A stretch of 64,000 nt of DNA from Paludibacteraceae bacterium (GCA_024689005.1 JAILDU010000093.1:649-64648), one strand, 5' to 3'; positions 4,030-59,321 are shown, numbered from the stretch's first letter. The notes: a model not told the origin generated them from the sequence alone. Numbers and translations: made by a program.

Positions 4030-4204
4030 CTTTACACTCCAAAGTGGGGGGGGACAGTACAATTGGCAATAGCTCCTGATTGAAGCAATTTTAATGCTTC
4101 CAGTTTGACCTCTAAGGGCACTTTCTTCCACATAATAAAGTATTTAAAGTGTCCCAAAAACGGGGTACACTACAAGTCTGGACACGGTGTGATCAGCATA
4201 ATAT

Positions 4205-4314
4205 ATCGTATATGTATCGTGTATCTATCGTATATATAACGTGTATCTATCGTATATCTAACGTGTATCTATCGTATATCTTTCGTGTATCTATCGTGTA
4301 TGTATCGTAGTCGT
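4205..4314. repeat. Tandem array of ten contiguous 11-bp units (consensus ATCGTRTATCT)
   Basis: Units read directly from the sequence: atcgtatatgt, atcgtgtatct, atcgtatatat, aacgtgtatct, atcgtatatct, aacgtgtatct, atcgtatatct, ttcgtgtatct, atcgtgtatgt, atcgtagtcgt. CG occupies unit positions 3-4 in all ten. Confidence 0.95.
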
Positions 4315-4410
4315 CCGCTGATTAGACAAAGAATGTGTTCGAAATAGGAGAGTCTCTGCAGGCGAGCAGCTATGCGGACTAAAGGGCCGTAAGATTTGAG
4401 TGAATTTGTA

Positions 4411-4458: not shown

Positions 4459-4490
4459 TTTGCGTATATCAAAAAAAAGCAGTAATTTTG
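4459..4490 (+). promoter_or_regulatory. Bacteroidota sigma-A type promoter (-33 TTTG / -7 TAnnTTTG) upstream of waaA
   Basis: TTTG (4459-4462), a 20-nt spacer containing an A8 tract, then TAATTTTG (4483-4490) followed by CGCGG. Confidence 0.75.
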
Positions 4491-4656
4491 CGCGGTAATT
4501 TGGAGTGGTGTGTTCTATCGAAAGCGGAAAGCTGATCCATTAGTTTGGTCACAATGCCTGCATCGCACCTTTGTTCAAATCAGCGATTTGCAAAAGAGAA
4601 ACGTTGAAATCATCGTTAAACAATTTGTAGAAAGACCCTAAACACAATAACTGAAT

Positions 4657-5922: not shown

Positions 5923-5940
5923 TGTTCCACGCCTGGATTA

Positions 5941-5984
5941 CCTTCGATATGCCTTCGATATGAGTTCGACAAGACCTCGATCGT
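5941..5984. repeat. Tandem array of four 11-bp units (CCTTCGATATG family)
   Basis: Units are ccttcgatatg, ccttcgatatg, agttcgacaag, acctcgatcgt. CG occupies unit positions 5-6 in all four. The array lies between waaA and hisS. Confidence 0.85.
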
Positions 5985-6061
5985 GGAACAATAGAGAAAA
6001 TGAAATAGAAAACGACAGGTCCATAGGGCCCGGTAAACGATAAAAAAGAATTGTAACAATA

Positions 6062-7375: not shown

Positions 7376-7386
7376 AAGAGTCGTAC

Positions 7387-7414
7387 AAAGCTAATTATCA
7401 ATTGTCAATTATCA
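7387..7414. repeat. Four tandem 7-bp units (ATCAATT family) in the spacer just upstream of a start codon
   Basis: Units are atcaatt, gtcaatt, atcaact, atcaatt. The 21-mer tcaattatcaactatcaatta (7395-7415) recurs exactly at 59702-59722. Confidence 0.85.
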
Positions 7415-7430
7415 ACTATCAATTACCGAA

Positions 7431-13849: not shown

Positions 13850-14320
13850 ATGAAGATAACACTTTTGGTCGTCGGACGAACGACAGATAGCCATTTAAGT
13901 GCAATGATAGACGATTATTGTCAACGCTTGCGACACTATGTGCCGTTCGAGTTGGTAGTCGTACCGGATATCAAGAATGCCAAGTCGTTGAGTGAAGAGC
14001 AACTCAAGAGTGCAGAGGGAGAACAGATTCTTGCGCGTCTCACACCGGTTGCAGACGTTGTCCTATTGGATGAACACGGTAGTGAGTTTCGTTCGGTTGA
14101 ATATGCGCAATGGATACAAAAGAAGATGACTTCAGGCCGTGATTTGATGCTCGTTATAGGCGGTGCCTATGGTTTTAGCGAAGCTGTTTATCAGCGCGCT
14201 AACGGCAAGTTGTCGCTCAGTAAGATGACTTTCTCTCACCAGATGATTCGTCTGCTGGCAGTAGAGCAACTCTACCGCGCCCTGACCATCCTCCGCGGTG
14301 AACCCTATCACCATGAGTAG
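13850..14320 (+). CDS. rlmH: 23S rRNA (pseudouridine1915-N3)-methyltransferase
   Basis: 156 aa SPOUT protein with VIGGAYGFS...LSLSKMTFSHQMIRLLAVEQLYRA. Confidence 0.92.
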   Translation: MKITLLVVGRTTDSHLSAMIDDYCQRLRHYVPFELVVVPDIKNAKSLSEEQLKSAEGEQILARLTPVADVVLLDEHGSEFRSVEYAQWIQKKMTSGRDLMLVIGGAYGFSEAVYQRANGKLSLSKMTFSHQMIRLLAVEQLYRALTILRGEPYHHE

Positions 14321-15089
14321 AAAAAACTATATGATACCTAAAATCATTCATTATATATGGTTCGGAGGTAATCCTTTGACTCCACTTGCAGAGGATTGTC
14401 TTAAGTCTTGGAAACAGCATATGCCTGAATGGGAATATATGCGTTGGGATGAAAGTAATTTTGATATTTCGGAAGCGCCGAAGTATGTACGACAAGCATA
14501 TGAAACGCGCAAATATGCGTTTGTGTCGGACTATGTGAGGCTTTGGGCATTGGAGCAATATGGTGGAATATATCTTGATACGGACGTCAAGGTGTTAAAA
14601 AGTTACGAACCATTACTTGATGATATTGCATTTATTGGAGTGGAAGAGTCAAAAGCACATCTGCCAGGAACTTGTGTTATAGGTTGTGAACCTCATTGTA
14701 TCTGGGTGAAAGATATGTTATCACTATACGAGAATGCAGAGTTCGTTAAGCCGGATGGGAAGTTAGATCTTACTACGAATGTAGAGCGAATGGGTATGAG
14801 CATGATTACAGCCGGTCTTAATCAACCTAATGAAGATACAAATAAGCCATGGAAGTTTATCCAATATATACCGAAATGGGGACTTCGTGTTTATCCACAT
14901 GATTATTTTTCTCCCATTACATCTACCCGTGTAATGCGTAAAACTAAGAATACATATTCAATTCATTACTTCGCCGAGAGTTGGCGAGATACGAAAAAGA
15001 GATCAACTTGGCGTACGTGGGTTGTAACTCGTGAGATAGTCAATGCATTAGTACAACTTAAACGTATTTTAGTGGAACACAAATTTTAA
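14298..15089 (+). CDS. Glycosyltransferase with a DXD sugar-binding region (GT32 / Gly_transf_sug-like)
   Basis: IPKIIHYIWFGG...SDYVRLWALEQYGGIYLDTDV. The start is uncertain; alternative ATGs at 14313 and 14331 would reduce the overlap with rlmH. Confidence 0.72.
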   Translation: MNPITMSRKNYMIPKIIHYIWFGGNPLTPLAEDCLKSWKQHMPEWEYMRWDESNFDISEAPKYVRQAYETRKYAFVSDYVRLWALEQYGGIYLDTDVKVLKSYEPLLDDIAFIGVEESKAHLPGTCVIGCEPHCIWVKDMLSLYENAEFVKPDGKLDLTTNVERMGMSMITAGLNQPNEDTNKPWKFIQYIPKWGLRVYPHDYFSPITSTRVMRKTKNTYSIHYFAESWRDTKKRSTWRTWVVTREIVNALVQLKRILVEHKF

Positions 15090-15117
15090 ATCGGTATTTG
15101 ATACTATAAATTCTGCA

Positions 15118-16059
15118 ATGAACAAAACATTAAGAAATATTAAAAGAGCGATAAAATATCTTTTGACCCCCAAGAGGTATTATAAAGGGATTGTGGTAAC
15201 GGGAAAAGGATGTGATTTTCTAGCTCAGTTTATTACAGATAGAATGCAACTTAATGTCAAAAGAGGTGACGTAACTGTATTTTCTGCATATAGTATTCTC
15301 TATGGTCTGTATTGGAATAGGGCCAAGTATAAGTTTTTCTTCACAGCAGAGAATACTCATGCCCCAACATCTCATTGGCTTCAGTTCGAAAATATTCATC
15401 TTCGCATACCATCTCTAACTCTTAGTCTTGGGTTTGACTATTGTGACCATCCTCGTTATATGAGATTTCCGTATTGGTTAGAGCGCCCATTCGGGCCATT
15501 CTCGACGTTAGAAAGTGTGTCTGAATTTGTCCACCAACATAATTATGCTGATATTGCCAGTCGTACAAAGCAATGTGCCTTTATATGCAGAAAGGATTAT
15601 TATGATGATCGTGCATTGTTCGCTGACATGGTTGAGCAGATTATGCCTATATCATATCCATCAGATTTTCGACATAACGATGATGATATGCGAGGAAAAT
15701 ATAATGATGACAAGATAGCCTATCTTCGTCAATTCCGTTTTAATTTATGTCCTGAGAATACCAATAGTCGAGGTTATGTTACGGAGAAAATATTCGAAGC
15801 TATAGCCGCAGGCTGTGTACCTATATATTGGGGAAATGAGGGCTACCCGGAACCGGATATTTTAAATCCTAAGGCAATAGTCTATTTGGACAAAGATAAT
15901 CCCACTGAAGGGCTTGAACTCCTTCGTAAGTTAAAAGAAGATCCGGAGGCTTATGCTGAGTTTGCATCTCAGCCACGTTTCTTGCCAAATGCGGAAAAAA
16001 CGATATACGCATACTACGAACGTTTGGAAAAGAAAATGAAAGATATATTTAAAAATTAG
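15118..16059 (+). CDS. GT10-family (alpha-1,3/4-fucosyltransferase-like) glycosyltransferase
   Basis: Hallmark C-terminal motif FRFNLCPENTNSRGYVTEKIFEAIAAGCVPIYWGN. The gene is very AT-rich. Confidence 0.72.
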   Translation: MNKTLRNIKRAIKYLLTPKRYYKGIVVTGKGCDFLAQFITDRMQLNVKRGDVTVFSAYSILYGLYWNRAKYKFFFTAENTHAPTSHWLQFENIHLRIPSLTLSLGFDYCDHPRYMRFPYWLERPFGPFSTLESVSEFVHQHNYADIASRTKQCAFICRKDYYDDRALFADMVEQIMPISYPSDFRHNDDDMRGKYNDDKIAYLRQFRFNLCPENTNSRGYVTEKIFEAIAAGCVPIYWGNEGYPEPDILNPKAIVYLDKDNPTEGLELLRKLKEDPEAYAEFASQPRFLPNAEKTIYAYYERLEKKMKDIFKN

Positions 16060-16066
16060 TATAACC

Positions 16067-16657
16067 ATGAAAAATGAAATAGAAACGATTAAGCAGGCAG
16101 AACGATTGTTTAGAGACGGAATAGAGCTGCGAGAACGCTTTATCAACGATCGACAAAATCTAGAGCAACTATGTCTAATAGCTGATAGAATTTATATGGC
16201 GCTCAAAAACGGGAATAAGATTTTGCTATGTGGTAATGGCGGTTCTGCCGCAGATGCTCAGCATATAGCAGCAGAACTAGTGGGACGGTTTGAAATCGCA
16301 GATAGAAAAGGACTTCCCGCCATAGCGTTAACAACCGATACGTCAATATTAACTGCGGTGGGAAACGATTATGGATATGATTATGTTTTCCAGCGTCAAG
16401 TAGAAGCATTAGGATTACCCGGTGACGTTTTAATTGCGCTGTCTACAAGTGGAAAATCGCTCAATATCGCCCGCGCATTAGATGCTGCGAACAAGCAAGG
16501 GTTAGTATCTGTAGCTTTATTAGGTGGAACGGGAGGTATATGTAAAGATAAATCTTCAATAAGCATTGTCGTGCCATCAATATCTTCCGCACGAATTCAG
16601 GAAATGCATATTACAATAGGCCATATACTATGTGCTATTGTGGAGCAAAACTTTTAG
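16067..16657 (+). CDS. gmhA: D-sedoheptulose-7-phosphate isomerase
   Basis: SIS domain with LLCGNGGSAADAQHIAAELVGRF, 196 aa. Confidence 0.9.
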   Translation: MKNEIETIKQAERLFRDGIELRERFINDRQNLEQLCLIADRIYMALKNGNKILLCGNGGSAADAQHIAAELVGRFEIADRKGLPAIALTTDTSILTAVGNDYGYDYVFQRQVEALGLPGDVLIALSTSGKSLNIARALDAANKQGLVSVALLGGTGGICKDKSSISIVVPSISSARIQEMHITIGHILCAIVEQNF

Positions 16658-16661
16658 TGTT

Positions 16662-17150
16662 ATGAACAAAGCAATATTTTTGGACCGAGATGGTACAATC
16701 ATAGAAGATAAATCGTATATGTACCATGTGGAAGACCTTATTCTGCTAGACAATGTAGTCGAGGCTCTTCGAAAATTCAAAGATATGGGATATTTGCTGA
16801 TAGTAATCACAAATCAATCGGGGATAGGGCGTGGCTATTTTACTATGCAGCAAGCAGAATCATTTCACAAGGCGTTTGTTGAATTGTTAAAAGAAAAAGG
16901 CTGCACTATTGATGCCACCTATACTTGTCCACATGCTCCTGAAGAAGGTTGCGCATGTAGAAAGCCGTCTCCATTATTAGTTCAAAGAGCAATTCAAGAT
17001 TGGCAGATTAATCCGAATGAATCATATATGTTCGGTGATAAAGAAACAGACGTATTATGTGGCTCCAATGCCGGAGTTAAGTCATACAAAGTATCCGCGC
17101 AAAATAATCTATTATATTGGGCAAACAAAATTGAAAGACATGAAATTTGA
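16662..17150 (+). CDS. gmhB: D-glycero-D-manno-heptose 1,7-bisphosphate phosphatase (HAD-IIIA)
   Basis: MNKAIFLDRDGTII, ITNQSGIGRGYF, CPH...CACRKP. The ATG at 16662 is preferred to the ORF-track start at 16632 because it lies 4 nt after the gmhA stop. Confidence 0.85.
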   Translation: MNKAIFLDRDGTIIEDKSYMYHVEDLILLDNVVEALRKFKDMGYLLIVITNQSGIGRGYFTMQQAESFHKAFVELLKEKGCTIDATYTCPHAPEEGCACRKPSPLLVQRAIQDWQINPNESYMFGDKETDVLCGSNAGVKSYKVSAQNNLLYWANKIERHEI

Positions 17151-18564
17151 TTCAAATCAATTTAAAAATAAGCGTATATTGCTAGTTGGAGATATAATGT
17201 TAGATGTCTATACCATCGGGTCCATAGAACGTATCTCTCCCGAAGCTCCAATACCTATAGTACGCGTAACTAAAACCTATGATTCATTAGGAGGCTGTGC
17301 TAATGTGGCAAATAATATTGCATCATTAGGCGCTGTCCCATATATTATCGGAATGATCGGTAATGATGCATCCGGAGAACGAGTAAAAGTGCTGCTGGAA
17401 GAAAAAGGAATCCCTAACACTTTGTTCGTTTCAGATAATCCCACAGTAACTAAGAATAGGATAGTCGGAAACAATCAACAGGTAGTGCGAGTGGATTATG
17501 AATCTGCTGTGATGAGTATAGAAGATGAAACAACTGAGGAAATCAAGAAATGTGTGGCGGAAATTCTTCTCCAAACAGATGTGGTGGTGCTTTCTGATTA
17601 TGCAAAAGGATTTTGTACAAAAGAGATATGTCAGTACATTATTCAGCAAGCCAGAAGAAAAGGTGTTCCCGTAGTAGTGGATCCCAAAGGGGCAGACTGG
17701 AAAAAATATCATGGCGCAACTACGATAACGCCAAATCTTAAAGAACTCTCAGAAAAAGCTCATTGTTCGTTGCCCAATAGTGAACCCGAAATCTCAAACG
17801 TGGCACGTACGATAGTAAAAGAGTGCGGGTTGGATTTTATTTTGGTAACCCGTTCGGACAAAGGAATGTCTTATGTGGATACAACGTCGTATTGTGAATT
17901 CCAAACAGAAGCGCGTGAAGTAGCGGATGTATCCGGTGCCGGTGATACAGTGGTGGCGGTATTGGCTACTTGTTTGGCTGCGCAATATGAAGTGAAAGAT
18001 GCGATACGAATTGCTAATTCTGCAGCAGGAATTGTTGTGGGGAAGATGGGAACAAAGCCAATTTTCAGTTCGGAACTTGAATCTTACTATAACTCAAATA
18101 CCGAGAGCAAGATAATTAGTAAAAATGCTCTTTCACAGGTAATGCAGTTGTTGAGAGAGAAACAGAAGAGAATTGTATTTACGAATGGTTGCTTCGATAT
18201 ATTGCATTGTGGACATGTGACGTATCTACAGCAAGCAAAACAACTCGGTGATATACTGATCGTCGGAGTTAATTCCGATGCATCAGTCAAGCGACTGAAG
18301 GGAGATGCCAGACCTATAAACAATATCGAAGCTCGTACTACAGTACTACAAGGATTAAGTAGCGTTGATTACATAGTTGTATTTGACGAAGATACTCCGT
18401 ATGAAATACTTTCTGTAATCCGTCCGGATGTATTAGTGAAAGGTGGAGACTATAAAGTAGAAGACATAGTCGGAAGAGAATTCGCCGGTGTAGTAAAAGT
18501 ACTTCCATTTGTAGATGGGTACTCAACCACCGGAATTGTAGAATCCATTCGGTTACAACAATGA
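17140..18564 (+). CDS. hldE: Bifunctional D-beta-D-heptose-7-phosphate kinase / heptose-1-phosphate adenylyltransferase
   Basis: N-terminal kinase (ILLVGDIMLDVY...RISPEAPIPIV) and C-terminal cytidylyltransferase (FTNGCFDILHCGHVTYL). The ATG at 17140 gives 474 aa and is preferred to 17017, which would overlap gmhB by 134 nt. Confidence 0.9.
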   Translation: MKFDSNQFKNKRILLVGDIMLDVYTIGSIERISPEAPIPIVRVTKTYDSLGGCANVANNIASLGAVPYIIGMIGNDASGERVKVLLEEKGIPNTLFVSDNPTVTKNRIVGNNQQVVRVDYESAVMSIEDETTEEIKKCVAEILLQTDVVVLSDYAKGFCTKEICQYIIQQARRKGVPVVVDPKGADWKKYHGATTITPNLKELSEKAHCSLPNSEPEISNVARTIVKECGLDFILVTRSDKGMSYVDTTSYCEFQTEAREVADVSGAGDTVVAVLATCLAAQYEVKDAIRIANSAAGIVVGKMGTKPIFSSELESYYNSNTESKIISKNALSQVMQLLREKQKRIVFTNGCFDILHCGHVTYLQQAKQLGDILIVGVNSDASVKRLKGDARPINNIEARTTVLQGLSSVDYIVVFDEDTPYEILSVIRPDVLVKGGDYKVEDIVGREFAGVVKVLPFVDGYSTTGIVESIRLQQ

Positions 18565-19517
18565 ATGCACCGCGCTTAAAATATTTAGTATCTGCTATTC
18601 GTAAGGTACGCGAGATAAATCAACTCTCGCGCAGTAACCACGGATGTGTGTCCGTAGTAGTTTTGGATCGAGGATTGGGTGATGCTGTAGTATGTGAACC
18701 CATATTTCGCTATTTGGCAGAAGAAAAGAATCATAAAACGGTTTGTCTGGTTCGCAAAGCAAATGCCCCCGTATGTACGTTATTTCCCAGTGTTAGTATG
18801 GTAATACCTTTTGCTTGCGAATGGGAGTTTCTCTTTATGACAGCGTTGTCAGATACTCGAAATTGGTATTTCCCTGATTTCCGTTGTAGGAAATGGGGGA
18901 AGTGGGGATATAAGAAGTTATTTTTACCAAAAAGTTTTACCAAAGAGACCCCCTATAACTACGGCAATTTTCAAGATAAAGGAACATTATTAGAGGTGTA
19001 TTCTGAAATGGGAGGATTCCCACGATTGAACACGCGACCGATATTAGACATAAGCAAAGGCTCATTTTCTAAAATAGCGCTTCCTCAGCGTCCATATATC
19101 GCAATACAAACAGCTGCAGCCAATCCTCTAAGATCTTGGGATTCCGATAAATGGGAACGATTAATACAGCAGTTTCCCTCCGTTACTTTTGTGGAAATAG
19201 GAACAAAACCACTTATAAAGAACGCTATTAACTGCGATTCTAATTTATGTGGGAAACTATCTGTTGCAGATATAGCATATGTAGTTAATAATAGTATAGG
19301 ATTTATCGGAACAGATAGTTCTTGTGCGCATTATGCCAGTGCTCTGTGTAAACGTTCCCTCATAATCATGTCTAAGTATTATGATTGGAAACAATACAAT
19401 CCTTTCTCCGGAATAGAAGATGATTCGTCTTTTCGCTTGGCATATTTCCCATGCGAGATGAAAGACGTTCCAGTTGAAAAGGTTGTGGAATATGTTAAGC
19501 AGCATTTTAATTTCTAA
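18561..19517 (+). CDS. GT9-family glycosyltransferase (heptosyltransferase-like)
   Basis: ATGA overlap with hldE. GT9-like features are LDRGLGDAVVCEPIFRYL and GTDSSCAHYASAL. Confidence 0.68.
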   Translation: MNAPRLKYLVSAIRKVREINQLSRSNHGCVSVVVLDRGLGDAVVCEPIFRYLAEEKNHKTVCLVRKANAPVCTLFPSVSMVIPFACEWEFLFMTALSDTRNWYFPDFRCRKWGKWGYKKLFLPKSFTKETPYNYGNFQDKGTLLEVYSEMGGFPRLNTRPILDISKGSFSKIALPQRPYIAIQTAAANPLRSWDSDKWERLIQQFPSVTFVEIGTKPLIKNAINCDSNLCGKLSVADIAYVVNNSIGFIGTDSSCAHYASALCKRSLIIMSKYYDWKQYNPFSGIEDDSSFRLAYFPCEMKDVPVEKVVEYVKQHFNF

Positions 19518-19546
19518 GTTTCACACAAAACACATAATATTTTTGT

Positions 19547-20218
19547 ATGACAATGAGATTATTGATGCAGGCTATGGGGAAGTACACGGCGGGAATAGTG
19601 ATTGTAGGCGGACTGCTGTTTGGAACAGCAGGCACGTTTGATTATTGGCAAGCATGGTTGTTCATGGGCTTGCTGTTTGTTCCCATGTTCGTTGCGGGCT
19701 GTGTGCTGATGGTTCGTCAACCGGAGTTTCTTCGTCATCGGTTGGATGCCAAAGAAGGACAAAAAGAACAAAAATGGGTGGTTGCGTTGAGCGGATTACT
19801 CTTTGTGAGCATGTTTGTGGTAGCAGGTTTGAATAATCGCTTCGGGTGGTACATATTACCAGATTGGGCGGTATATACGGCCGGGGGCGTATTTTTGGCT
19901 GCCTATGCGTTATATGCAGAAGTAATGCGCGAGAATGTGTGGCTGTCGCGGACAATCGAAGTGCAGGAAGATCAACAGGTGGTGGATAGCGGTTTGTACG
20001 GCATAGTTCGCCACCCGATGTATGGCGCGACCTTGATTCTTTTTCTGGCAATGCCTCTTGTGCTGGCTTCTGTTTGGTCGTTTATTATCATGTTACTGTA
20101 TATACCTGTAATCGCTTTGCGTATTTGTAACGAAGAGGAAATGTTGGAACGCGAATTGAAAGGTTATAAGGAATACAAACAACGCGTTAAATACAAAGTG
20201 ATTCCATTCGTGTGGTAA
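19547..20218 (+). CDS. Isoprenylcysteine carboxyl / phospholipid methyltransferase-family membrane protein
   Basis: Multi-TM protein with DSGLYGIVRHPMYGATLILFLAMPL. Confidence 0.72.
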   Translation: MTMRLLMQAMGKYTAGIVIVGGLLFGTAGTFDYWQAWLFMGLLFVPMFVAGCVLMVRQPEFLRHRLDAKEGQKEQKWVVALSGLLFVSMFVVAGLNNRFGWYILPDWAVYTAGGVFLAAYALYAEVMRENVWLSRTIEVQEDQQVVDSGLYGIVRHPMYGATLILFLAMPLVLASVWSFIIMLLYIPVIALRICNEEEMLERELKGYKEYKQRVKYKVIPFVW

Positions 20219-20236
20219 AAGAAAACGGGCAAGTCT

Positions 20237-20545
20237 ATGTGTAACGAAGATCTGGTGCAATATATAACTGAGCAGGCAGCAAAAGCAGGTGAGATAGCGG
20301 CCAAGAAGATGTTTGGCGACTATGCGCTCTATTGCGACGGCAAAGTGGTCGGGCTGATTTGTGACGATTATTTGTATCTGAAGCCTCTCAAGCCATTGGA
20401 GTCTGTATTGCACGAATGCGACCGCCAAATGCGTCCACCATATGATGGCGCAAAACCGCATTTCGTAATAACAGACGTAGATGACGCGGATTATGTGTCA
20501 CAGTTGGTAAAAATCACAGCGGACCATTTGCCCAAGAAACGCTAA
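20237..20545 (+). CDS. TfoX/Sxy N-terminal-domain protein
   Basis: KKMFGDYALYCDGKVVGLICDDYLYLKP, 102 aa. Confidence 0.62.
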   Translation: MCNEDLVQYITEQAAKAGEIAAKKMFGDYALYCDGKVVGLICDDYLYLKPLKPLESVLHECDRQMRPPYDGAKPHFVITDVDDADYVSQLVKITADHLPKKR

Positions 20546-20558
20546 CAGAAAAAATGAT

Positions 20559-21038
20559 ATGGCTCAGAAGGTACAGAAAACAAATGTGTGCAGATTGCTG
20601 GATGCGGCAAATATTACGTACGAACTGATAGAATATGCTGTAGATGAGTCGGATTTGAGTGCGACGCACGTAGCGGAACAACTGGGAGAAGATACAGATG
20701 CTGTATTTAAGACCATCGTGCTGGAAGGCGATAAGATAAAGCATTTTGTGTGCGTAGTGCCGGGAGCGTGCGAAGTGGATCTAAAGAAAGCAGCGCGCGT
20801 AAGCGGTAATAAGTCGTGCAAGCCGATAGCACAAAAAGAATTGTTGCCGTTGACAGGTTATATACGTGGCGGTTGTTGCCCGATAGGCATGAAGAAATTA
20901 TTTCCGTCATATATAGACGAGACCTGTCTGCTGCATGAGAAAATCTATGTGTCAGCCGGACAACGCGGTATGCAAATCCGGATTCGTCCTCAGGATTTGG
21001 TCGGATATGTTCCGTTGGAGATAAGCGATTTGATATAA
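20559..21038 (+). CDS. ybaK: Cys-tRNA(Pro)/Cys-tRNA(Cys) deacylase
   Basis: YbaK/EbsC pattern: VFKTIVLEGDK..., LLPLTGYIRGGCCPIGMKK, IYVSAGQRGMQI. Confidence 0.85.
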   Translation: MAQKVQKTNVCRLLDAANITYELIEYAVDESDLSATHVAEQLGEDTDAVFKTIVLEGDKIKHFVCVVPGACEVDLKKAARVSGNKSCKPIAQKELLPLTGYIRGGCCPIGMKKLFPSYIDETCLLHEKIYVSAGQRGMQIRIRPQDLVGYVPLEISDLI

Positions 21039-21172
21039 GGCACTTCTAAAAAATCCATGTTTAAGGAGTTTCCCATAGTTAATAATATTTGAACTTTAAC
21101 ATGCTTTCGCGTTTACTCTTTGTCTTGCTATAAAAGAACCCTTAAAAAGAGTGTGGAGAATCTGCTTAACAT

Positions 21173-21282
21173 CAGCGTAAGGTCAGCGTAAGGTCTGCTG
21201 ATTATCTCGAGTATTGTCTAGGATTGTCTCGATATTAACTCGAAGTCAACTCGAAGTCAACTCGAAAGCATCTCGAAAAGTT
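21173..21282. repeat. Tandem array of ten 11-bp units in perfect register (mixed unit sequences)
   Basis: Units are cagcgtaaggt, cagcgtaaggt, ctgctgattat, ctcgagtattg, tctaggattgt, ctcgatattaa, ctcgaagtcaa, ctcgaagtcaa, ctcgaaagcat, ctcgaaaagtt. The array contains the dispersed 26-mer ctcgagtattgtctaggattgtctcg (21206-21231). Confidence 0.93.
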
Positions 21283-21346
21283 TTCGGTTATAAATAGAAA
21301 GTGCTCTGCGCAAATTATTGTTAGCAGAGTGATAAATCGTGTAATG

Positions 21347-21378
21347 CTTGCGTAATTGAAAAAAAAATAGTATCTTTG
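21347..21378 (+). promoter_or_regulatory. Bacteroidota -33/-7 promoter upstream of the HXXEE membrane protein gene
   Basis: CTTG (21347-21350), a 20-nt spacer containing an A9 tract, then TATCTTTG (21371-21378) followed by CGCGG. Confidence 0.72.
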
Positions 21379-21404
21379 CGCGGTTTTTGTGCGCAGAAAA
21401 GTAA

Positions 21405-21995
21405 ATGAACCGAATCGGGAAATATTTGGTGAGAAATTCAGCATGGTTGTTGCTATCCTATAGTATAGGTTGGCTGGTGTGGTTGAGCATGAATTGGGAG
21501 AGTATCAGTTCGGTACAACGATTGCTGGCGGGCATGTTTGTGCTGCTGGCTGCGCATGAGATAGAAGAGACATACCAGGACCGTTTTGTTGCGATGATGG
21601 GAAGAGTGGTCGGTTTTGACCCGGAGAAATTGCCTATGCAGGGCATTATTCATTTGCCGGCCGATATCGGAATAGGAGTGCTGATGACGTTGAGTATAGT
21701 GTATTCGGACCGGATATGGCTGGTGTTGCCGGTATTTATGCTCGGTATAGTGGAGATGATAGTTCACAACACGTGCATAGCGGCTTTTCGTCTAAAGAGT
21801 CTGTCGTCCGGTTGGTACTCGGCCATGCTACAAGGGATATACAGTATATATGCGTTGGTTCTCATCTGCCGTTTTGTCGCAATAGATAGAAACGATTGGC
21901 TGTTGGGTGCATTATTGCTTGCTTGTTGTTTCGGGATGCTGGAAGTGTGGATATTGTGGGTGACAGGAAAACTGACAAAATGGCAGAAGAAGTAG
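21405..21995 (+). CDS. HXXEE-domain integral membrane protein
   Basis: Multi-TM protein with an AAHEIEETYQ motif. Confidence 0.55.
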   Translation: MNRIGKYLVRNSAWLLLSYSIGWLVWLSMNWESISSVQRLLAGMFVLLAAHEIEETYQDRFVAMMGRVVGFDPEKLPMQGIIHLPADIGIGVLMTLSIVYSDRIWLVLPVFMLGIVEMIVHNTCIAAFRLKSLSSGWYSAMLQGIYSIYALVLICRFVAIDRNDWLLGALLLACCFGMLEVWILWVTGKLTKWQKK

Positions 21996-22037
21996 TGTTG
22001 GCACACTATTTGAGCAAGGGAAGTGGGGAATAGTGTA

Positions 22038-22081
22038 AAACCCCGATGAAACCCCGATAAAATATCGAAAAAAGAGAAAGG
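22038..22081. repeat. Short 11-bp-register array (AAACCCCGATR family) upstream of grpE
   Basis: Units are aaaccccgatg, aaaccccgata, aaatatcgaaa, aaagagaaagg. The reverse complement of the ATCGGGGTTT units appears at 42612-42655. Confidence 0.75.
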
Positions 22082-22093
22082 ATAAACATAGAT

Positions 22094-31855: not shown

Positions 31856-33384
31856 CGAATTCCGTATTGTGTGGTTGTCAGATGTTGTTTTTTTGTTTCG
31901 TTCCAGATGGCTTTGTTTCGTCTAAAGTCCTCTTCGTTACGGTAAGGGCGTTTGTGAAAGAGATGTAAGAGTGGCGTTCCGTATCTCAATTGAATACCGG
32001 TTATACCAGCATTCTCCAATCGTTGACCAAATTCGCGGTCTTCAGCTCCGTAACGCATACGTGTATCAAAACCATTTGCACGGATGATATATTCGCGCCA
32101 TGTAGAAGCATTTCCTCCGTTCCATGAAGCCTTCGTTGGCGTAATCCAATTCATCACTTTGCATACAAAAGAGTTGTGCCATAGTTTGCTCATCTTCCAA
32201 TTCCATGGCATTCCATGTTGTCTCAACCAATTGATGCAGAACGCATTTCCGCTTGCAATATCCTCTTCTGATAAAGCATGACTCAATTGTTCGGGCAACA
32301 TGATTGCACCACCGGAAACAAAGTGTCCATGCGCGGCATGTCTGTAATGCTGACTGATAAAATCTTTTCTCGGTATTAAGTCTTGATCGATAAAGATCAG
32401 ATAATCGCTTTGGGCAATAGTAACGGCTTTGTTCAGTATTTCTGTTTTGCGGAAACCATGGTCCTCGTGCCATACATGTCTTAAAGGTAATAGCGTAGAG
32501 TATTGCTCTATGAGCGCAGCAGTTCGTTGGTCTGAGCCATCATCGGCAATGATTATTTCGGTAGACCGGTGCGTTTGATATTTCAGTCCCCAGAGAACTT
32601 TCTCAAGCCAAGTCGGATTGTTGTATGTGGATACAATAACACCAACAGAAAATGTGTCATCGGTAACGAAATGTTCATGTGAATGGTGCTTCCAAAAACG
32701 TGTTCGCGCAGTTTGTATCCATTGTATGCAATCAGTTTCGCTTATATTTCTATCTGCAGCATAAATCGGACACAAAGATTCAAAGAAATCCTTTTTCCCC
32801 CAAAGGCGGCACAAGTTGTTACACCCCTGGCGAGGAGAAACATAGCCGAACTGCATTCGGTTGATATCCACCAATTCAAACTGCCACTTGTTATTAACCT
32901 TTCCGTAGAGAATGTTTCCCGGAGACAAATCTTTGTGCAACACGCCTGCATTATGTAACGATGCTGCAAAATGTGCGAAAGCCTCAATCAAGTCCTCTTT
33001 GCCTGCAATATTACCATCTCTGAAGTTGTAGAAACTCTGAGTGAACCGGCTTTGCAGGGTGATGAGATAAGATTCTTCTATAAGACCATTTCCGCAAAGA
33101 ATGTATGCTATAGGAGTCGGTGTCGCAATTCCTCGTTTCTTTAACTCAAAAGCATTTCTGTATGCAGATTCTGCCTTTGGAGTGCGAAACAAAGTATAAA
33201 CTAAGCGATTGAACCAAATGGGTCGTTTATAACGTTTTACGCACAACGAAAATCCGTTATACGTGATTAGTCTTATTTGGTTGCGTTCGTTATAGATTAC
33301 CTTTCCTAATTGTTCAAACTGCTGTGGAATCAATTGCAGCCATTCACGCAACTGTTCATATTGTGGATTGACTATTATCTTCAT
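31852..33384 (-). CDS. Fusion protein with an N-terminal LPS-kinase (Kdo/WaaP/InaA family) domain and a C-terminal GT2 glycosyltransferase domain
   Basis: The kinase catalytic loop is LHKDLSPGNILY, followed by ELVDINRMQF. The GT2 start is VGVIVSTYNNPTWLEKVL...IIADDGSD...FIDQD. Confidence 0.75.
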   Translation of the reverse strand: MKIIVNPQYEQLREWLQLIPQQFEQLGKVIYNERNQIRLITYNGFSLCVKRYKRPIWFNRLVYTLFRTPKAESAYRNAFELKKRGIATPTPIAYILCGNGLIEESYLITLQSRFTQSFYNFRDGNIAGKEDLIEAFAHFAASLHNAGVLHKDLSPGNILYGKVNNKWQFELVDINRMQFGYVSPRQGCNNLCRLWGKKDFFESLCPIYAADRNISETDCIQWIQTARTRFWKHHSHEHFVTDDTFSVGVIVSTYNNPTWLEKVLWGLKYQTHRSTEIIIADDGSDQRTAALIEQYSTLLPLRHVWHEDHGFRKTEILNKAVTIAQSDYLIFIDQDLIPRKDFISQHYRHAAHGHFVSGGAIMLPEQLSHALSEEDIASGNAFCINWLRQHGMPWNWKMSKLWHNSFVCKVMNWITPTKASWNGGNASTWREYIIRANGFDTRMRYGAEDREFGQRLENAGITGIQLRYGTPLLHLFHKRPYRNEEDFRRNKAIWNETKKQHLTTTQYGIR

Positions 33385-34325
33385 TTCGTTTCCAGTAGTT
33401 TGTTAACAATTTCTTCAGGTGTGATATCCAGGCAGCGATAGTCGCCATATTTGCATTTCTTGTTGCCATAGATAGAGCAAGGACGGCATGGCATATCATG
33501 TTGTATGCAGTCGGACTCTTTTTGTCCGAAGCCTAAGAATCCAGCATTGGGATGCGTAGCGCCCCAAATAGAGATGACTCGTGTCCCAGCCAAAGAAGCA
33601 AGGTGCATGTTTGCGCTATCCATAGTAAGCATGACGCGCAGGTTTTTCATTCGCTTTAGGTCGCTCAAGATCCCGGAATTGACTCGAGTATTGTCTAGGA
33701 TTGTCTCGGAATCAACCCACGATTGTAATATACTTATTTCTTTTTCTCCTGCTCCAAACAAGACGACCTTTTCTCCTCGGTTACGTAGCAATTTGACCAC
33801 CTGTTCCATCTTGTCGATGGGATATATTTTTCCTCTGTGTGCAGCAAAAGGTGCGATACCGATACCCTCTCCTGATGTGCTGATGGATGGTTGCGGCAAA
33901 AGAATAGGAAAACCTATGCGTCGCAGTACATCAGCATATCGCTCAATCATCGGCACGAGAGGTTTCCGTATCCAACCATGAGTGAGCATCCATTTTTGGA
34001 TGCGTCCTTTGTGTAAGGTTGCCACGTGTGCGCCGCGTAGTCTCATGCACCAACGAATGTAGAGCGAGCGCCAGACACCATGCATGTCTGCCACATAATC
34101 GTATTTGCCCAAACGATTTATTATCTCTCGAAGTGACTCTTTTTTTGTGTCCACTCCCAGAAAATGTACGTTATGCGGCATGTCAGCGTACAAGTCCGCC
34201 ATGCGTTGTCGCGAAAGCATGGTAATTTCCGTGTCCGGATATTGTTCGGCTAGTGCGCGAACAACGGGAACCAGCATAGCGACATCGCCTAAAGCGGAGA
34301 AACGTATGACAAGTATGCGTATCAT
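33381..34325 (-). CDS. GT9-family glycosyltransferase (heptosyltransferase)
   Basis: MIRILVIRFSALGDVAMLVPVVRAL...MDSANMHLASLAGTRVISIWGATHP. Confidence 0.85.
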   Translation of the reverse strand: MIRILVIRFSALGDVAMLVPVVRALAEQYPDTEITMLSRQRMADLYADMPHNVHFLGVDTKKESLREIINRLGKYDYVADMHGVWRSLYIRWCMRLRGAHVATLHKGRIQKWMLTHGWIRKPLVPMIERYADVLRRIGFPILLPQPSISTSGEGIGIAPFAAHRGKIYPIDKMEQVVKLLRNRGEKVVLFGAGEKEISILQSWVDSETILDNTRVNSGILSDLKRMKNLRVMLTMDSANMHLASLAGTRVISIWGATHPNAGFLGFGQKESDCIQHDMPCRPCSIYGNKKCKYGDYRCLDITPEEIVNKLLETK

Positions 34326-37335: not shown

Positions 37336-38088
37336 TCAGTTATCCACCACTTTAGTCTTTTTCTTCAATTCAAAATCTCGTCCCAAATAGTTCTGTCTAA
37401 CCACCGGGTTGGCTGCCAGTTCCTCAGGAGTGCCGTGGAAAAGGATTTTTCCCTCAAACAATAGATAAGCGCGGTCTGTAATCATTAGCGTTTCATCTAC
37501 GTTATGGTCTGTAATCAGAATACCTATATTCTTGTCTTTTAGACGCCAAACAACGTCTTGAATCTCTTGTACAGCAATCGGGTCCACTCCGGCAAAAGGT
37601 TCGTCCAACATGACGAACTTAGGTTCTATGGCCAGACAGCGTGCAATCTCTGTACGGCGGCGTTCTCCACCACTCAGGCGGTCACCCAGATTCTTGCGAA
37701 CGTGCGCCAAGTTGAACTCTTTGATCAACTGCTCCAGTTTTTCCTCCTGATACTCTTTGCTGAATTCAGTCAGTTCCAATACAGAGCGAATATTGTCTTC
37801 TACTGTCATTTTTCGAAAGACACTCGCTTCCTGTGGTAGATAACCGATTCCCATCTTGGCACGTTTGTACATTGGAAATGCTGTTATGTCTTGGTCGTTA
37901 AGAAATATCTTACCATGATTGGCCGTTACCAAGCCGGTTGTCATATAGAAGGTGGTTGTCTTGCCGGCTCCGTTCGGGCCCAGCAACCCCACTATCTCAC
38001 CTTGTTCCAGCTCGATAGACACATCGTTGACAACAGTTCGTTTGCCGTATTTCTTTATGAGATGTTCTGTGCGTAACTTATCCATCAA
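37336..38088 (-). CDS. lptB: LPS export ABC transporter ATP-binding protein
   Basis: [40 protein letters not shown], and the LptB-type C-terminal extension. Confidence 0.9.
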
Positions 38089-38098
38089 TTCTCGATTA

Positions 38099-38863
38099 TC
38101 AATTATCTATTTGCACCATCACTGGGCAGTGGTCAGAATGGACTGCATCGGTCAGTATCTTTGCATCTTTGAGTCGGCTGCGCAAGGGTTCGCTTACCCA
38201 ATGGTAATCGATTCGCCAGCCCACATTGCGTGCGCGTGCTCCGGCTCGCCAACTCCACCAACTATAGCGCTCTGCACTTTGGTCAAACACGCGAAAACTA
38301 TCCACCATGCCGCTTGCTTCCCAACGATCCATCCATTCGCGCTCTTCCGGTAAGAAGCCGGACACGCCTATTTGGCGTTCGGGGTGATTAATATCTATTG
38401 GCTTGTGACAAATGTTATAATCTCCGCATACCACTATGTTCGGTCGCTCTTTGCGCAGGTCGTTGATCCACACTAAGAAATCCTCCAGAAATTCCATCTT
38501 GAAGTCTTGGCGAACATCGCCGGTAGTGCCACTCGGAATATATGCATCCACTATAGTTATGTCACCGAAGTCTGCTCTTAGTACACGTCCTTCGCGGTCG
38601 TATTTGGGATTACCCATACCCACAACCACTTTGTCCGGTTGCTGTTTGCAAAAGATACACACGCCCGAGTAGCCTTTCTTTTCAGCCGAATGGATGTAAC
38701 TGTGATATCCCAGTTCTTGCATTGCCAGCACGTCTATCTGTTCCGGCTGTGCTTTACTTTCCTGAATGCAGAATACATCCGGTTTTTCCGTTTGCAGCCA
38801 ATCCAATAGTCCTTTGCCTATGGCAGATCGTATTCCGTTGAGATTATAACTGATGATTTTCAT
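38099..38863 (-). CDS. xth: Exodeoxyribonuclease III
   Basis: [14 protein letters not shown]..., DVFCIQE, GDYNICH, SDHCPV. Confidence 0.93.
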
Positions 38864-42354: not shown

Positions 42355-42378
42355 ATTTGTCCAATATAAAAAATCGCG

Positions 42379-42410
42379 CAAAGATACTACTTTTTTCTCA
42401 TATATGCAAA
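42379..42410 (-). promoter_or_regulatory. Bacteroidota -33/-7 promoter driving the mlaE...LOS gene string
   Basis: On the minus strand: TTTG (42410-42407), a 20-nt spacer with an A6 tract, then TATCTTTG (42386-42379) followed by CGCGA. Confidence 0.75.
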
Positions 42411-42490
42411 TATCGAGCCACCTTTTTGCATATTTTGTGTTTTCCTAAAATTTGCAGACATTATATTGGCTATTCTTAGTACCAATAGGT

Positions 42491-42655
42491 TAATTGTCTC
42501 GGAATTGACTCGGAGTTGACCCACGTATTGTCTAGGATTGACTCGTAATCGTCCCGTAATCGTCCCGTAATTGTCTTGAAGACATATCGAAGGCAATTCG
42601 AAGACAATTCGAATTTTTATCGGGGTTTGTTCGGGGTTTTATCGGGGTTTGGTCA
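42491..42655. repeat. Tandem array of fifteen 11-bp units in perfect register (165 bp)
   Basis: Units are taattgtctcg, gaattgactcg, gagttgaccca, cgtattgtcta, ggattgactcg, taatcgtcccg, taatcgtcccg, taattgtcttg, aagacatatcg, aaggcaattcg, aagacaattcg, aatttttatcg, gggtttgttcg, gggttttatcg, gggtttggtca. CG sits at the unit end in 11 of 15 units. Confidence 0.95.
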
Positions 42656-43150
42656 GGCTTTCTCAGAATGTAGCAATTCTTCTACCATATTGGAGTTGTA
42701 GTATTCGGGTTGTCCGGTTACTTCTTGTCCGAGCCATTCCGGGCGTTCGTACTGTTCGTTCTCGTCCTCCATCTCCAGTTCGGCGAGTCTGCGTCCTTCG
42801 AGGCGTCCGTGGAAGACGTCCACTTCCCATTTGCGTCCTTGCACTCCTTTTACGTTAGCGGGAATGATGTAACGTGTCTTTTCTATAATGCACGGCAGGC
42901 ACGCTTTGAGCATCTGTCGCGCGTCGTCCACATCTATCTCGCGTTCCCACTCAAAGCGCCCGATACCCACCTGGTCGATGGTTGATTTGATGGTGAGGAA
43001 TGCCTGGTTGTCGCGCAAACGGATACGTATCGTACGCTCGGGGTCCAAGCAGAGATAACCCTGCGTAATATGGTGACTATCAGTTGCTTCTGATATGAAT
43101 GCATCAGATGTAACGAGAAACTTGCGCTCAATCTCTTTGTTCTTTGACAT
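42653..43150 (-). CDS. CYTH-domain protein (triphosphatase / CyaB-like)
   Basis: N-terminal EIERKFLV signature, 165 aa. Confidence 0.85.
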   Translation of the reverse strand: MSKNKEIERKFLVTSDAFISEATDSHHITQGYLCLDPERTIRIRLRDNQAFLTIKSTIDQVGIGRFEWEREIDVDDARQMLKACLPCIIEKTRYIIPANVKGVQGRKWEVDVFHGRLEGRRLAELEMEDENEQYERPEWLGQEVTGQPEYYNSNMVEELLHSEKA

Positions 43151-48763: not shown

Positions 48764-48777
48764 TTCTTAATTATCAA

Positions 48778-50127
48778 CTATTGATTATCAATTCCGTTTA
48801 GTATCCAATCGGCAACGGCGTTGCCTGCCTTTCGTGCGCCGGAACGTTGAAAATGCACTCCGTCGCTTCCGGCCAGCCCTATCTCTTGCCAGCGTATCAT
48901 ACTGCCGGCTCCTCCCATCCATCGGAAGAGACTGAAATAGGCTATTTCTTCCTCTTGTGCCATCTTGCGAAGCAGGCGGTCCATGTATGGCACTAACGGA
49001 TAGGTGGTCAGTTCGCCGTCTATGGTTGTCAGCATATCGCTCGGGCCGATGAAGAGAATAGAAGCGTCCGGCGCACATCGTTTCAGGTAGCGTACTTGTT
49101 CGCGCAGTCCCTTGACAATGCTATATATTGTGCTTGGTTTTTCGTTTGAAGGAATGGCATTGCCGCCGAATTGCATGATTATTAGAGATACGTTAGCATC
49201 ATTGTAGAATTGTGTCAACTGCTCAGCATCCATGCGGGTAAAGACTAATCCCAAACAACCGCGCATAGCTATATTATCCACGATAATACCGGTGGACGAT
49301 TCTTGTGATAGCCCATATACATTGCCCTTGCCATAGAGGTAGAGTGTATCTCCGTTGTGCATGTATTCAATGGACTTATCTGCCAACACGCGCCAGCGCG
49401 TATAGCGCGCACGTCCATCTATAGGTGTGCAGACTGTTTTGATTTTTTCGCTGCCTTTGACCAGACTGTCTGCCATCACAGCCATCTGGCCCATCGGACC
49501 ATATTTGCCGTCTGTGCGCTGCATACTTCTCAATCCGTAAACCATATATCGTTTGGGACCTTGTTGAGCCGTTACCAGATGATCGTTCATATATACTTTC
49601 TGATCAACGCTGAGGCTGCGTATCGTTTGTACCAACGGCATCAGTCCGACACCTGCACCACCGAAACGGTCTTGCAGTTTATGACGTATTTGTGCCGTCA
49701 TTCTATCTTCTTCTATTTGGCTGTCTCCATAGTGCAGCACGCGAATCTGACGATTGTCTGCATGTTGCAGCGCTGCGTAGAATGTAGCGAGATATCGGCG
49801 ACTGTCGTCAGTTGTATCTACTTGCACTACGGGAGGAGTTATGCGTTGAGTCTGCTGTGCCGGTGTTGTTGCTGCTTCTTCAACACTATCGTTGTTGGTT
49901 TCACTTGCTGTTTCCTCTAATTCGGGAAATTCCGGAAGCTCAAGAATAGTATTTTCTTCCTTTTCGGCGAGTTCTGCTTCCTGTTGCTTTATGTCGAACA
50001 CATCTGCTAAGGAAGGACTGCGCAACGTGCGAGTCCCCACCACAACTTGGTGAGGCAACGTTACGCATAGAGCCCCCAGACAGAGCATACAACACGCAAT
50101 GAAAAAGAATATTCTATATGGCCGCAT
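48778..50127 (-). CDS. SGNH/GDSL-type hydrolase or acyltransferase partner of the MBOAT protein
   Basis: Signal or anchor N-terminus, then SGNH blocks YGDSQ, QFGGNA and SDGVH. Confidence 0.62.
   Translation of the reverse strand: MRPYRIFFFIACCMLCLGALCVTLPHQVVVGTRTLRSPSLADVFDIKQQEAELAEKEENTILELPEFPELEETASETNNDSVEEAATTPAQQTQRITPPVVQVDTTDDSRRYLATFYAALQHADNRQIRVLHYGDSQIEEDRMTAQIRHKLQDRFGGAGVGLMPLVQTIRSLSVDQKVYMNDHLVTAQQGPKRYMVYGLRSMQRTDGKYGPMGQMAVMADSLVKGSEKIKTVCTPIDGRARYTRWRVLADKSIEYMHNGDTLYLYGKGNVYGLSQESSTGIIVDNIAMRGCLGLVFTRMDAEQLTQFYNDANVSLIIMQFGGNAIPSNEKPSTIYSIVKGLREQVRYLKRCAPDASILFIGPSDMLTTIDGELTTYPLVPYMDRLLRKMAQEEEIAYFSLFRWMGGAGSMIRWQEIGLAGSDGVHFQRSGARKAGNAVADWILNGIDNQ

Positions 50128-54843: not shown

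Positions 54844-54844
<1 letters not shown>
52928..54844 (-). CDS. dxs: 1-deoxy-D-xylulose-5-phosphate synthase
   Basis: GHLASSLG, VWDVGHQAYAHK, IGDGAMTGG, 638 aa. Confidence 0.97.
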
Positions 54845-57477
<2,633 letters not shown>

Positions 57478-57564
57478 ATATTATTTTTTATTTTGTGCCT
57501 TGTAAATAATCCTTATTTACGCTCTTCTGCTCTTGGCAAGATGAACTGAAAGGAAAAAATCGCG

Positions 57565-57596
57565 CAAAGGTACAACATTTTTTTTGAATATGCAAA
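57565..57596 (-). promoter_or_regulatory. Bacteroidota -33/-7 promoter upstream of valS
   Basis: On the minus strand: TTTG (57596-57593), a 20-nt spacer with an A8 tract, then TACCTTTG (57572-57565) followed by CGCGA. Confidence 0.75.
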
Positions 57597-57705
57597 TTAT
57601 TACTGCGCTTTTTGTCTTAAATTAACTTATCGGCGTATTCCTACTATACAAAAAACGGACTCCCAAACACTGTTGAGAGCCCGAATATAATCGTCAGGAT
57701 AAATA

Positions 57706-59256: not shown

Positions 59257-59321
59257 ACCGCAAATCTTAAAAATCGTATATTTTTCAACATGTTTTGCAA
59301 GTCCTCATTTTTATCTGTCTT

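Follow-up and report, generated by a model that had tools for sequence, protein, structure and literature searches.

What is an array of ten 11-bp units doing between the end of a YbaK-like gene and the promoter of the operon that follows it? The array was predicted at positions 21173-21282 of a 64,000-nucleotide stretch of DNA from a Paludibacteraceae bacterium (GCA_024689005.1 JAILDU010000093.1:649-64648), the whole of which is referred to here as the window. We find that it is one copy of an interspersed element of ~110-120 bp and ~10-11 units, consisting of a left arm, an invariant core and a right arm, and that the core is identical at ~50 further loci in several species of rumen Paludibacteraceae and Bacteroidales. 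The element is apparently undescribed and specific to the rumen Paludibacteraceae clade; full-text literature searches yielded no prior description of an 11-bp-phased interspersed repeat in Bacteroidetes.

Architecture of the element

The target sequence parses exactly into ten 11-mers, and CTCGA heads six of the last seven units, just as the original prediction stated. Tandem Repeats Finder reports a period of 11 at 21172-21195 and 21228-21278, and in seven further places in the window. In the register of the family, where a unit ends in CTCG, the target element spans 21166-21286 and comprises 11 units: four on the left, two in the core and five on the right (Table 1). The first three left-arm units belong to a G-rich "left-arm" class (here GTAAGGTCWGC), and GTGAAGGTACG-like left units similar to them are also present at loci L008, L010, L016 and L029. 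These three units end in CWGC with the register unchanged, and the other left unit and all five right units end in YTCG. The 20-bp core, TATTGTCTAGGATTGNCTCG, is matched exactly at 21212-21231. A profile hidden Markov model, built solely from non-window loci of other genomes, aligns to the target from 21166 to 21284 (model positions 12-130 of 132; E=4.1e-20, 66.9 bits, nhmmer), and the right arm reaches a four-unit position weight matrix score of 27.0, against a null maximum of 19.2.

The array had also been described as exactly the same length as one at 4205-4314 and as related to it and to a further array at 42491-42655. The kinship is confirmed, since all belong to one family, and the sizes are indeed similar, but the exactness of the match depends on the parse (at that site, Tandem Repeats Finder gives 9.6 copies and a repeat finder gives 4190-4321). 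Two "10 x 11" arrays were noted because the family has a modal size of ~10-11 units.

Table 1 Coordinates of the target element, its neighbors and related arrays in the window.
Feature	Position	Strand	Remarks
Left arm, four 11-bp units (TTAACATCAGC, GTAAGGTCAGC, GTAAGGTCTGC, TGATTATCTCG)	21166..21209	+	in-register parse; profile match 21166-21284
22-bp core, AG-TATTGTCTAG followed by GATTGTCTCG	21210..21231	+	two head-to-tail half-sites, 12+10 bp, 11-bp register kept
Right arm, five units ending in YTCG (ATATTAACTCG, AAGTCAACTCG x2, AAAGCATCTCG, AAAAGTTTTCG)	21232..21286	+	
Upstream gene, YbaK/aminoacyl-tRNA-editing domain	20559..21038	+	element begins 128 bp past its stop codon
Bacteroidetes-type promoter of downstream operon	21348..21378	+	-33 TTG 21348-21350; -7 TAtcTTTG 21371-21378
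Downstream gene, hypothetical membrane protein, then grpE, dnaJ	21405..21995	+	188-aa database form would start at 21429
Family member, core variant GACTCG at 42526-42545	42491..42666	+	profile match 42491-42594, E=2.4e-18
Family member in family-9 glycosyltransferase (GT9) gene, antisense	33640..33717	+	profile E=2.4e-13
Family member in valyl-tRNA synthetase (ValRS) gene, antisense	55234..55340	+	core, then three in-register YTCG units; profile E=1.2e-16
Short coreless array (AAAACCCCG, ATGAAACCCCG, ATAAAATATCG), hypothetical-gene/grpE spacer	22032..22082	+	
Coreless array, ~10-12 TGTATCTATCG-type units	4192..4320	+	22-bp super-period; weak profile matches, E=0.06-0.6
Coreless array, ATATGCCTTCG type, kdtA/hisS spacer	5934..5992	+	profile E=0.018

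Chance or simple slippage as the source of the 11-bp period is ruled out by lag specificity, by shuffles and by recurrence across species. When self-similarity was scored over 33 nt at a threshold of at least 66% identity, nine regions were found at lag 11 and 0-2 at each of the other lags from 5 to 24, except for five at the harmonic lag 22. Over 44 nt and at least 75% self-identity, regions were seen at lags 11 and 22 only, bar one at lag 8. The pattern CG-N9-CG-N9-CG-N9-CG occurs 16 times per strand, compared with ~1.2 expected for both strands summed, and the same four-CG pattern occurs 0 times at 10-bp spacing and three times at 12-bp spacing. The window as a whole holds at least eight arrays in 64 kb.

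The family shows the same organization when loci are divided into 11-mers, with the core fixing the register. Its 22-bp core, AG-TATTGTCTAG followed by GATTGNCTCG, consists of two head-to-tail half-sites, ATTGTCT(A/C)G, whose 12+10 bp maintain the register. Each side of the core carries several units ending in (C/T)(C/T)CG; the G-rich class is frequent in left arms, the right-arm consensus is AWAWNSYCTCG (79 right-arm units), and the unit consensus (approximately ATATTGTCTCG) is a degenerate version of the core half-site. Across 36 non-redundant contexts, phased by the core only, the frequency of in-register CG is 0.53-0.72 at -22, -33, +11, +22 and +33, drops to 0.25-0.44 at ±44 and ±55, and is ~0.04 in other phases, and an alternation of AT-rich and GC-rich segments extends from about -54 to +44. 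Differences from unit to unit are lowest at the CG (0.15-0.18, versus 0.28-0.45 elsewhere in the unit). The core also contains CTAG, a tetramer that is depleted ~8-fold in the window (16 observed, 123 expected; observed/expected 0.13): four of the 16 sites are core copies, the target's among them, and the CTAG of the core is the sole one in 8 kb for L005, L006, L013 and L019. The tetramer check took in the window, these four loci and L058; AGCT (0.44) and GATC (0.61) were also low.

Because the spacing is exactly 11 bp, all units lie on one face of the helix. Recognition of double-stranded DNA from one face is indicated by the one-turn spacing, a strong center that fades over 4-5 turns on each side, the orientation independence of non-coding copies, the lack of RNA structure and the retention of the YYCG register, and a protein that nucleates on the core and then oligomerizes or wraps the DNA is therefore proposed. 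Judged from sequence, the element may be a helically phased protein-docking array that acts at the DNA level and is nucleated at the core, a tentative reading to which we give a little less than an even chance. A putative sequence-specific protein would nucleate on the core and extend cooperatively, or wrap DNA, across ~ten helical turns of weaker N7-YYCG units. Binding of one protomer per 11-bp direct repeat has precedents in ParR on parC and in DnaA at oriC (see below). At 21166-21286 such a complex would occupy the stretch from the end of the ybaK-like gene to the downstream operon promoter, where it could serve as a boundary, roadblock or topological landmark, not as an operator dedicated to that promoter.

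A center with phased arms could also suit a strong, hard-wired target of DNA gyrase or a different type II topoisomerase, with central cleavage and phased wrapping arms, analogous to the BIME-2 class of bacterial interspersed mosaic elements (BIMEs). The Escherichia coli gyrase motif covers 130 bp, with a center from -16 to +19 and two periodic arms, at -63 to -17 and +20 to +66, in which the G/C content is phased; gyrase cleaves preferentially at BIME-2 intergenic repeats and is drawn downstream of transcribed units (PMC6379681). The element is alike in layout and size, with its center and phased AT/GC arms over ~110-120 bp, and its intergenic copies often begin a few to a few dozen bp past a stop codon. 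However, gyrase recognizes its sites degenerately, through indirect read-out, and thus leaves a 20-bp invariant core unexplained. The enzyme also has two-fold symmetry, in contrast to the element, which is a polar direct repeat whose left and right arms are unlike, and two arrays (59301-59375 and 59443-59481) lie between divergent promoters, where negative rather than positive supercoils accumulate. We consider a gyrase site improbable.

Distribution across genomes, promoters and coding genes

When one genome per prokaryotic species was scanned, TATTGTCTAGGATTGNCTCG was found at 26 loci, 25 of them in metagenome-assembled genomes (MAGs) of rumen Paludibacteraceae or uncultured Bacteroidales; the 26th is archaeal and of a kind expected by chance. 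A metagenome scan added 30 loci. About half of the copies are intergenic and the rest are within genes. The neighbors are functionally unrelated (recA, ftsK, a GH9 cellulase, porZ, ham1 and a TetR/OEP pair are among them). Those of the target are the YbaK-like gene, the hypothetical membrane protein, grpE and dnaJ, and its context is chromosomal. At L022, L023, L035 and L038, the element nearly fills a 100-160-bp spacer between co-directional genes, leaving no space for a promoter. The apparent "sense coding" cases, L003 and L045, are over-extended open reading frames (ORFs) in which the signal-peptide start comes after the array. In three species, orthologous DUF3987 genes (L010 6357-7649, L016 688-1992, L056 2118-3374) have an element 174-191 bp past their 3' end, in one case reversed; DUF3987 is a family associated with mobile elements.

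Within the window, the 26-mer CTCGAGTATTGTCTAGGATTGTCTCG that includes the core recurs exactly at 33683-33708, with 0 recurrences expected by chance. A third copy shares 25 nt (TATTGTCTAGGATTGTCTCGATATT) at 55272-55296, and a fourth, with 19/20 of the core, is found at 42526-42545 in a composite array. The earlier claim that the 26-mer also occurs in two coding sequences is borne out: the exact copy is in the GT9 gene (33381-34325, minus strand) and the 25-nt copy in the ValRS gene (54844-57477, minus strand). The ValRS copy is conserved in the MAG Tb.RUG.124 (L018/L050). The composite array at 42491-42666 lies upstream of a minus-strand promoter at 42386, and its right end has further unit types.

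Coreless arrays at 5944-5992, 60898-60941 (minus strand) and 4177-4224 are matched weakly by the profile. A perfect 9-bp inverted repeat, TGTTCCACG/CGTGGAACA (5923-5931 and 5982-5990), flanks the array at 5934-5985, with a chance of ~5% by rough estimate; an inverted-repeat scan of seven window arrays revealed it at no other. Five copies of ACCATAGGATA (60947-61002) adjoin the minus-strand N7-CTCG array at 60898-60948, and three Tb.RUG.124 loci (L015, L021, L027) have related ACCTAGGTAT repeats on the left side of the core, which suggests that ACCATAGGATA/ACCTAGGTAT repeats are a further module of the element system. A second dispersed repeat family, with 7-bp units (AATTATC/AACTATC), is seen at gene ends (7386-7425, 38087-38112, 48762-48787, 59531-59556 and 59697-59722).

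The promoter of the downstream operon lies ~65 bp after the end of the array as first drawn, in agreement with the original prediction; it adjoins the element and is outside the repeat family. Its complementarity to the minus-strand promoter at 42369-42409 is 85%, which makes it an inverted copy. The window contains seven near-identical ~45-bp promoters of the Bacteroidetes type (4459-4496, 21339-21384, 42369-42413, 57554-57597, 59210-59260, 59620-59660 and 61166-61210), which share TTTGCnTAT..A8..(T)AGTAnnTTTGCGCG, a likeness far exceeding what the -33/-7 consensus demands.

A promoter association had been proposed for the arrays, and six of the seven canonical window promoters do have an array 46-155 bp upstream of their -33 element. 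The target could be a regulatory array specific to its promoter, since operators of the OmpR/PhoB family typically consist of direct repeats with an 11-bp period, with operator or UP-like sites for a regulator of 21348-21378 such as an OmpR/PhoB-type response regulator. This explanation is weak, because the distance varies from 46 to 155 bp, the orientation varies, and many copies are intragenic or have no promoter after them; the arrays at 5934-5985 and 22032-22082, for example, are followed by no canonical promoter. In addition, one core is common to unrelated genes, and the array is missing where relatives lack a 7-kb insertion at the locus (see below). We regard a promoter-specific role as very unlikely; the association holds for most canonical promoters in the window, but not as a general property of the family.

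Coding copies are found in eight unrelated host enzymes: ValRS, GT9, DPP-IV, a DHH/NrnA-like phosphoesterase, a radical-SAM protein, an acyltransferase/amine-oxidase fusion, DNA polymerase I and an amidase. Across all eight host families the core runs antisense and is read in a single frame, as E-[TSP]-I-L-D-N-x, with one doubtful exception (L025). This frame is open in nine of 23 intergenic elements, compared with 4-7 for each of the three other possible frames. Avoidance of stop codons alone predicts ~36% for the coding frame (9 of 25 open element-frames) and does not explain the use of a single one. Chance core matches from beyond the clade (L009, L028, L054) share the frame of the in-clade coding copies, which suggests that the motif becomes established at sites that tolerate a common, helix-compatible peptide.

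Comparison of these enzymes with homologues reveals two kinds of change. In the DHH gene, comparison with the Bacteroides fragilis structure 4PY9 shows the array as an in-frame insertion of ~42 aa. DHH/NrnA-like genes with the translated insertion were seen in two or three species (L004 5668-6918, L017 4592-5869, L031 2326-3603), and there the inserted sequence varies between species while the core is identical. In ValRS, the region differs from Thermus thermophilus ValRS (1GAX) by at most five residues in length; the DPP-IV segment aligns gap-free to LRTLEDN of Porphyromonas gingivalis and LKTLINN of Bacteroides thetaiotaomicron; and the window GT9 has the same length as 39 homologues, with DSETILDNTRV replacing their KKYPNVESV. 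The element therefore both inserts and overwrites. Among DPP-IV genes of five MAGs, fetched because they bear the core, 19/20 core positions are invariant, whereas 20-nt windows around the core average 6/20.

The antisense position of the core in coding hosts raises the possibility of an RNA-level network, in which sense-transcribed intergenic copies would pair over 20-26 nt with the mRNAs of ValRS, GT9, DPP-IV and others and so couple their stability. Such pairing would fit the finding that 8/8 in-clade coding hosts carry the core antisense in one frame, well beyond the share predicted from stop avoidance, and the copy at 21212 is sense relative to its flanking genes. However, half of the intergenic copies are oppositely oriented, with a tally of ~10:10 relative to co-directional flanking genes. 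Rfam gave 0 matches in the window, and folding of either strand was no better than that of shuffles (z = -0.09 and -0.77), so a structured RNA or known RNA family was rejected. The exact phasing of the arms would have no role in RNA pairing, and the shared frame of the out-of-clade chance matches suggests that ExILDN may be just a common tolerated peptide. An RNA network is thus highly improbable, and the even orientations, the absence of a folding signal and the lack of an Rfam match favor a DNA over an RNA element.

The element could also be a DNA uptake signal, or another molecular-drive sequence like the uptake signal sequences (USS) of Pasteurellaceae or the DNA uptake sequences (DUS) of Neisseriaceae. 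In favor of this, the motif is found in both coding and non-coding DNA, its frame and orientation are strongly biased within genes, and the changes in coding segments preserve length. The Haemophilus USS is known to have helically phased flanks, and a small protein with a TfoX_N domain, a competence-regulator family, is encoded at 20237-20545, two genes upstream of the target array. However, four cores in 64 kb and ten in one MAG fall far short of the ~1 per kb of known uptake sequences, and to our knowledge competence has not been documented for this clade. Of all the explanations weighed here, an uptake signal is the one we find hardest to credit.

Array turnover and the case for a host function

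The collections hold no conspecific genome of the window organism, and Tb.RUG.124 shares only the ValRS region with the window (92.8% nt identity). The closest grpE-bearing contigs, L058 and L059 (GrpE 94% aa, ~79% nt), have the orthologue of the 21405 gene 18 bp after rlmH, with no array. After rlmH the window interposes a 7-kb lipopolysaccharide-core/heptose block (14313-21038), the array and the canonical promoter. The block encodes two glycosyltransferases, a GmhA-like SIS protein, an HldE-like kinase/cytidylyltransferase, a GT9, a PEMT/ICMT-like methyltransferase, the TfoX_N protein and the YbaK-like protein, and it is absent between rlmH and the hypothetical gene in L058, L059 and L001. 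The target array has no orthologue in the available relatives: a search among 5.8 billion proteins returned a single homologue of the downstream protein, at 65% identity, on a contig that lacks the ybaK side of the locus, as do L058 and L059. The original prediction had held that an array absent from or unrelated in all close relatives, and showing no promoter association, would count against it. This is borne out in part, as none is present at the locus in these ~79%-identical contigs, but the feature stands, since the element family is conserved across species.

Other sites show both persistence and change. The hypothetical-gene/grpE spacer has an array whose position is conserved in relatives, with three units in the window, 7-8 in L058 (9847-9942) and 6-7 in L001. 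The near-identical contigs L007 and L024 differ by whole units. In the window the kdtA/hisS spacer contains an array and measures 139 bp, whereas that of L058 has no array and measures 27 bp; as the gene ends differ, the boundaries of the insertion could not be resolved. Thus, arrays persist at some sites, change in 11-bp steps, and come and go as roughly element-sized pieces. Under the docking-array reading, the family would persist as arrays gain and lose 11-bp units and as new copies arise by insertion and also by overwriting of tolerant coding segments.

The same turnover could be that of a purely selfish interspersed repeat, which would spread by insertion, short-patch gene conversion and 11-bp slippage, have no host function, and keep its core for the spreading machinery. 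It would account for the kdtA/hisS difference of about one element length, the in-frame insertion in the DHH/NrnA-like gene, the length-preserving overwrite in GT9, the variation in unit number (L007 versus L024, L001 versus L058) and the functionally unrelated neighbors. However, the copies share neither terminal inverted repeats nor target-site duplications, and no transposase or recombinase was found beside any copy. Orthologous copies (in DPP-IV and in the hypothetical-gene/grpE spacer) last across species, as decaying selfish copies should not, and the YYCG register is retained in arms that have otherwise diverged. Two specific forms of mobility were rejected as well. A scan of seven window arrays detected no shared terminal inverted repeats, the flanks of ~50 copies are unrelated, and no transposase or other gene family recurs beside copies, in disagreement with a miniature inverted-repeat transposable element or transposon. 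A phage or plasmid origin is not supported either, as blastn against plasmid and phage collections gave no match and the viral contigs contained no core. We consider a selfish repeat unlikely on balance, but it is a serious rival.

Several points weigh against a protein-docking array. A binding site within conserved enzymes looks costly for host function and fits selfish drive at least as well. Flanking units hold little information besides YYCG, and local duplication explains much of the similarity within arrays. Loci were gathered by exact core match, so that core conservation is partly built in and coreless orthologues are not retrievable. The counts of exact cores, ten in the fragmented MAG Tb.RUG.124 and four in the window, do not give a per-genome total. 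Finally, no DNA-binding protein, transposase, recombinase or other gene family recurs near copies in the neighbor survey, and no binding protein could be nominated.

On a larger scale, the element could be the cis half of an undescribed, chromosome-wide Paludibacteraceae system, in which a dedicated protein on phased tracks would form domain or topology boundaries, or polar barriers to RNA polymerase or the replisome; selection or drive would then write these tracks into housekeeping enzymes in the single tolerated frame. We hold this broader proposal to be rather unlikely. By GC skew, one replichore extends throughout the window, with the plus strand probably leading, and a replication terminus or Ter-like cluster was rejected on this ground. 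All four cores and eight of nine orientation-readable arrays have their units on the plus strand. This bias is an observation on the window, since the 8-kb loci gave too noisy a signal in a skew-based test of orientation; it is no more than suggestive, and it may reflect a replication-linked polarity.

Very little is known about chromosome organization and interspersed repeats in Bacteroidetes. The element is tolerated in essential genes such as ValRS, in one frame, and is therefore a rare case of protein sequence being visibly constrained by a DNA-level signal. Should there be a cognate protein, the element is a ready bait for it and could reveal a new nucleoid, topological or insulator system. 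At a practical level, the arrays probably break short-read assemblies, as many copies are at contig ends, and they inflate ORF calls (L003, L045), affecting MAG quality in this clade.

Relation to known repeat systems

The closest structural likeness is to the centromere of plasmid R1. Its parC site carries two groups of five 11-bp iterons, each bound by one ParR dimer, and cooperative binding produces a bent or wrapped complex (PMC2241845). The parC site and the element alike consist of ten 11-bp direct repeats over ~110 bp and adjoin a promoter. However, parC is a single plasmid site beside parM and parR, with its two iteron sets flanking the promoter, whereas the element occurs as many chromosomal copies with an invariant core, some of them intragenic, with no ParM/ParR-like neighbors and no plasmid match.

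A strong site followed by weaker ones is also found at the replication origin. In E. coli oriC, a high-affinity DnaA box nucleates, and weak sites of the same orientation at 11-bp spacing guide a cooperative filament. The element likewise presents a strong site and then weak, same-orientation, 11-bp-spaced units, but oriC is a single replication-initiation locus with a 9-mer DnaA box, while the element is unrelated to TTATCCACA and dispersed over the chromosome.

Among interspersed repeats, the element resembles repetitive extragenic palindromic sequences (REPs), BIME-2 and the gyrase motif in being interspersed, mostly intergenic, located at gene ends and in operon spacers, and ~110-130 bp long with a center and phased arms (PMC6379681). 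REPs differ in being palindromic hairpins that are not known to enter coding sequence; the element is a polar direct repeat with an invariant 20-bp core and no hairpin potential.

Rickettsia palindromic elements (RPEs) are short interspersed elements that lie in frame within genes and are translated; they are palindromic and, as far as is known, always add length. The in-frame translated copies found here, and the insertion in the DHH gene in particular, are reminiscent of RPEs, but several coding copies (ValRS, DPP-IV, GT9) are length-neutral, and the element is built of 11-bp tandem units.

In operators of the OmpR/PhoB family, such as pho boxes and ArcA sites, head-to-tail half-sites ~10-11 bp apart are bound at promoters, usually as 2-5 repeats, the number of extra repeats being variable. 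The half-site spacing of the element is similar, and its core half-site contains TGTC, as pho boxes do. These operators, however, are not known to lie inside unrelated coding genes or to share an identical 20-mer across a regulon. For the element, promoter linkage is not general, and no cognate response regulator was found.

The element thus shares traits with iteron arrays and centromeres, with REP/BIME sequences and with RPEs, and it lacks a defining feature of each, since it has no par genes, no palindrome and is not insertion-only. In several uncultured rumen species, it couples an invariant 20-22-bp core with exact one-turn phasing over ~ten turns.

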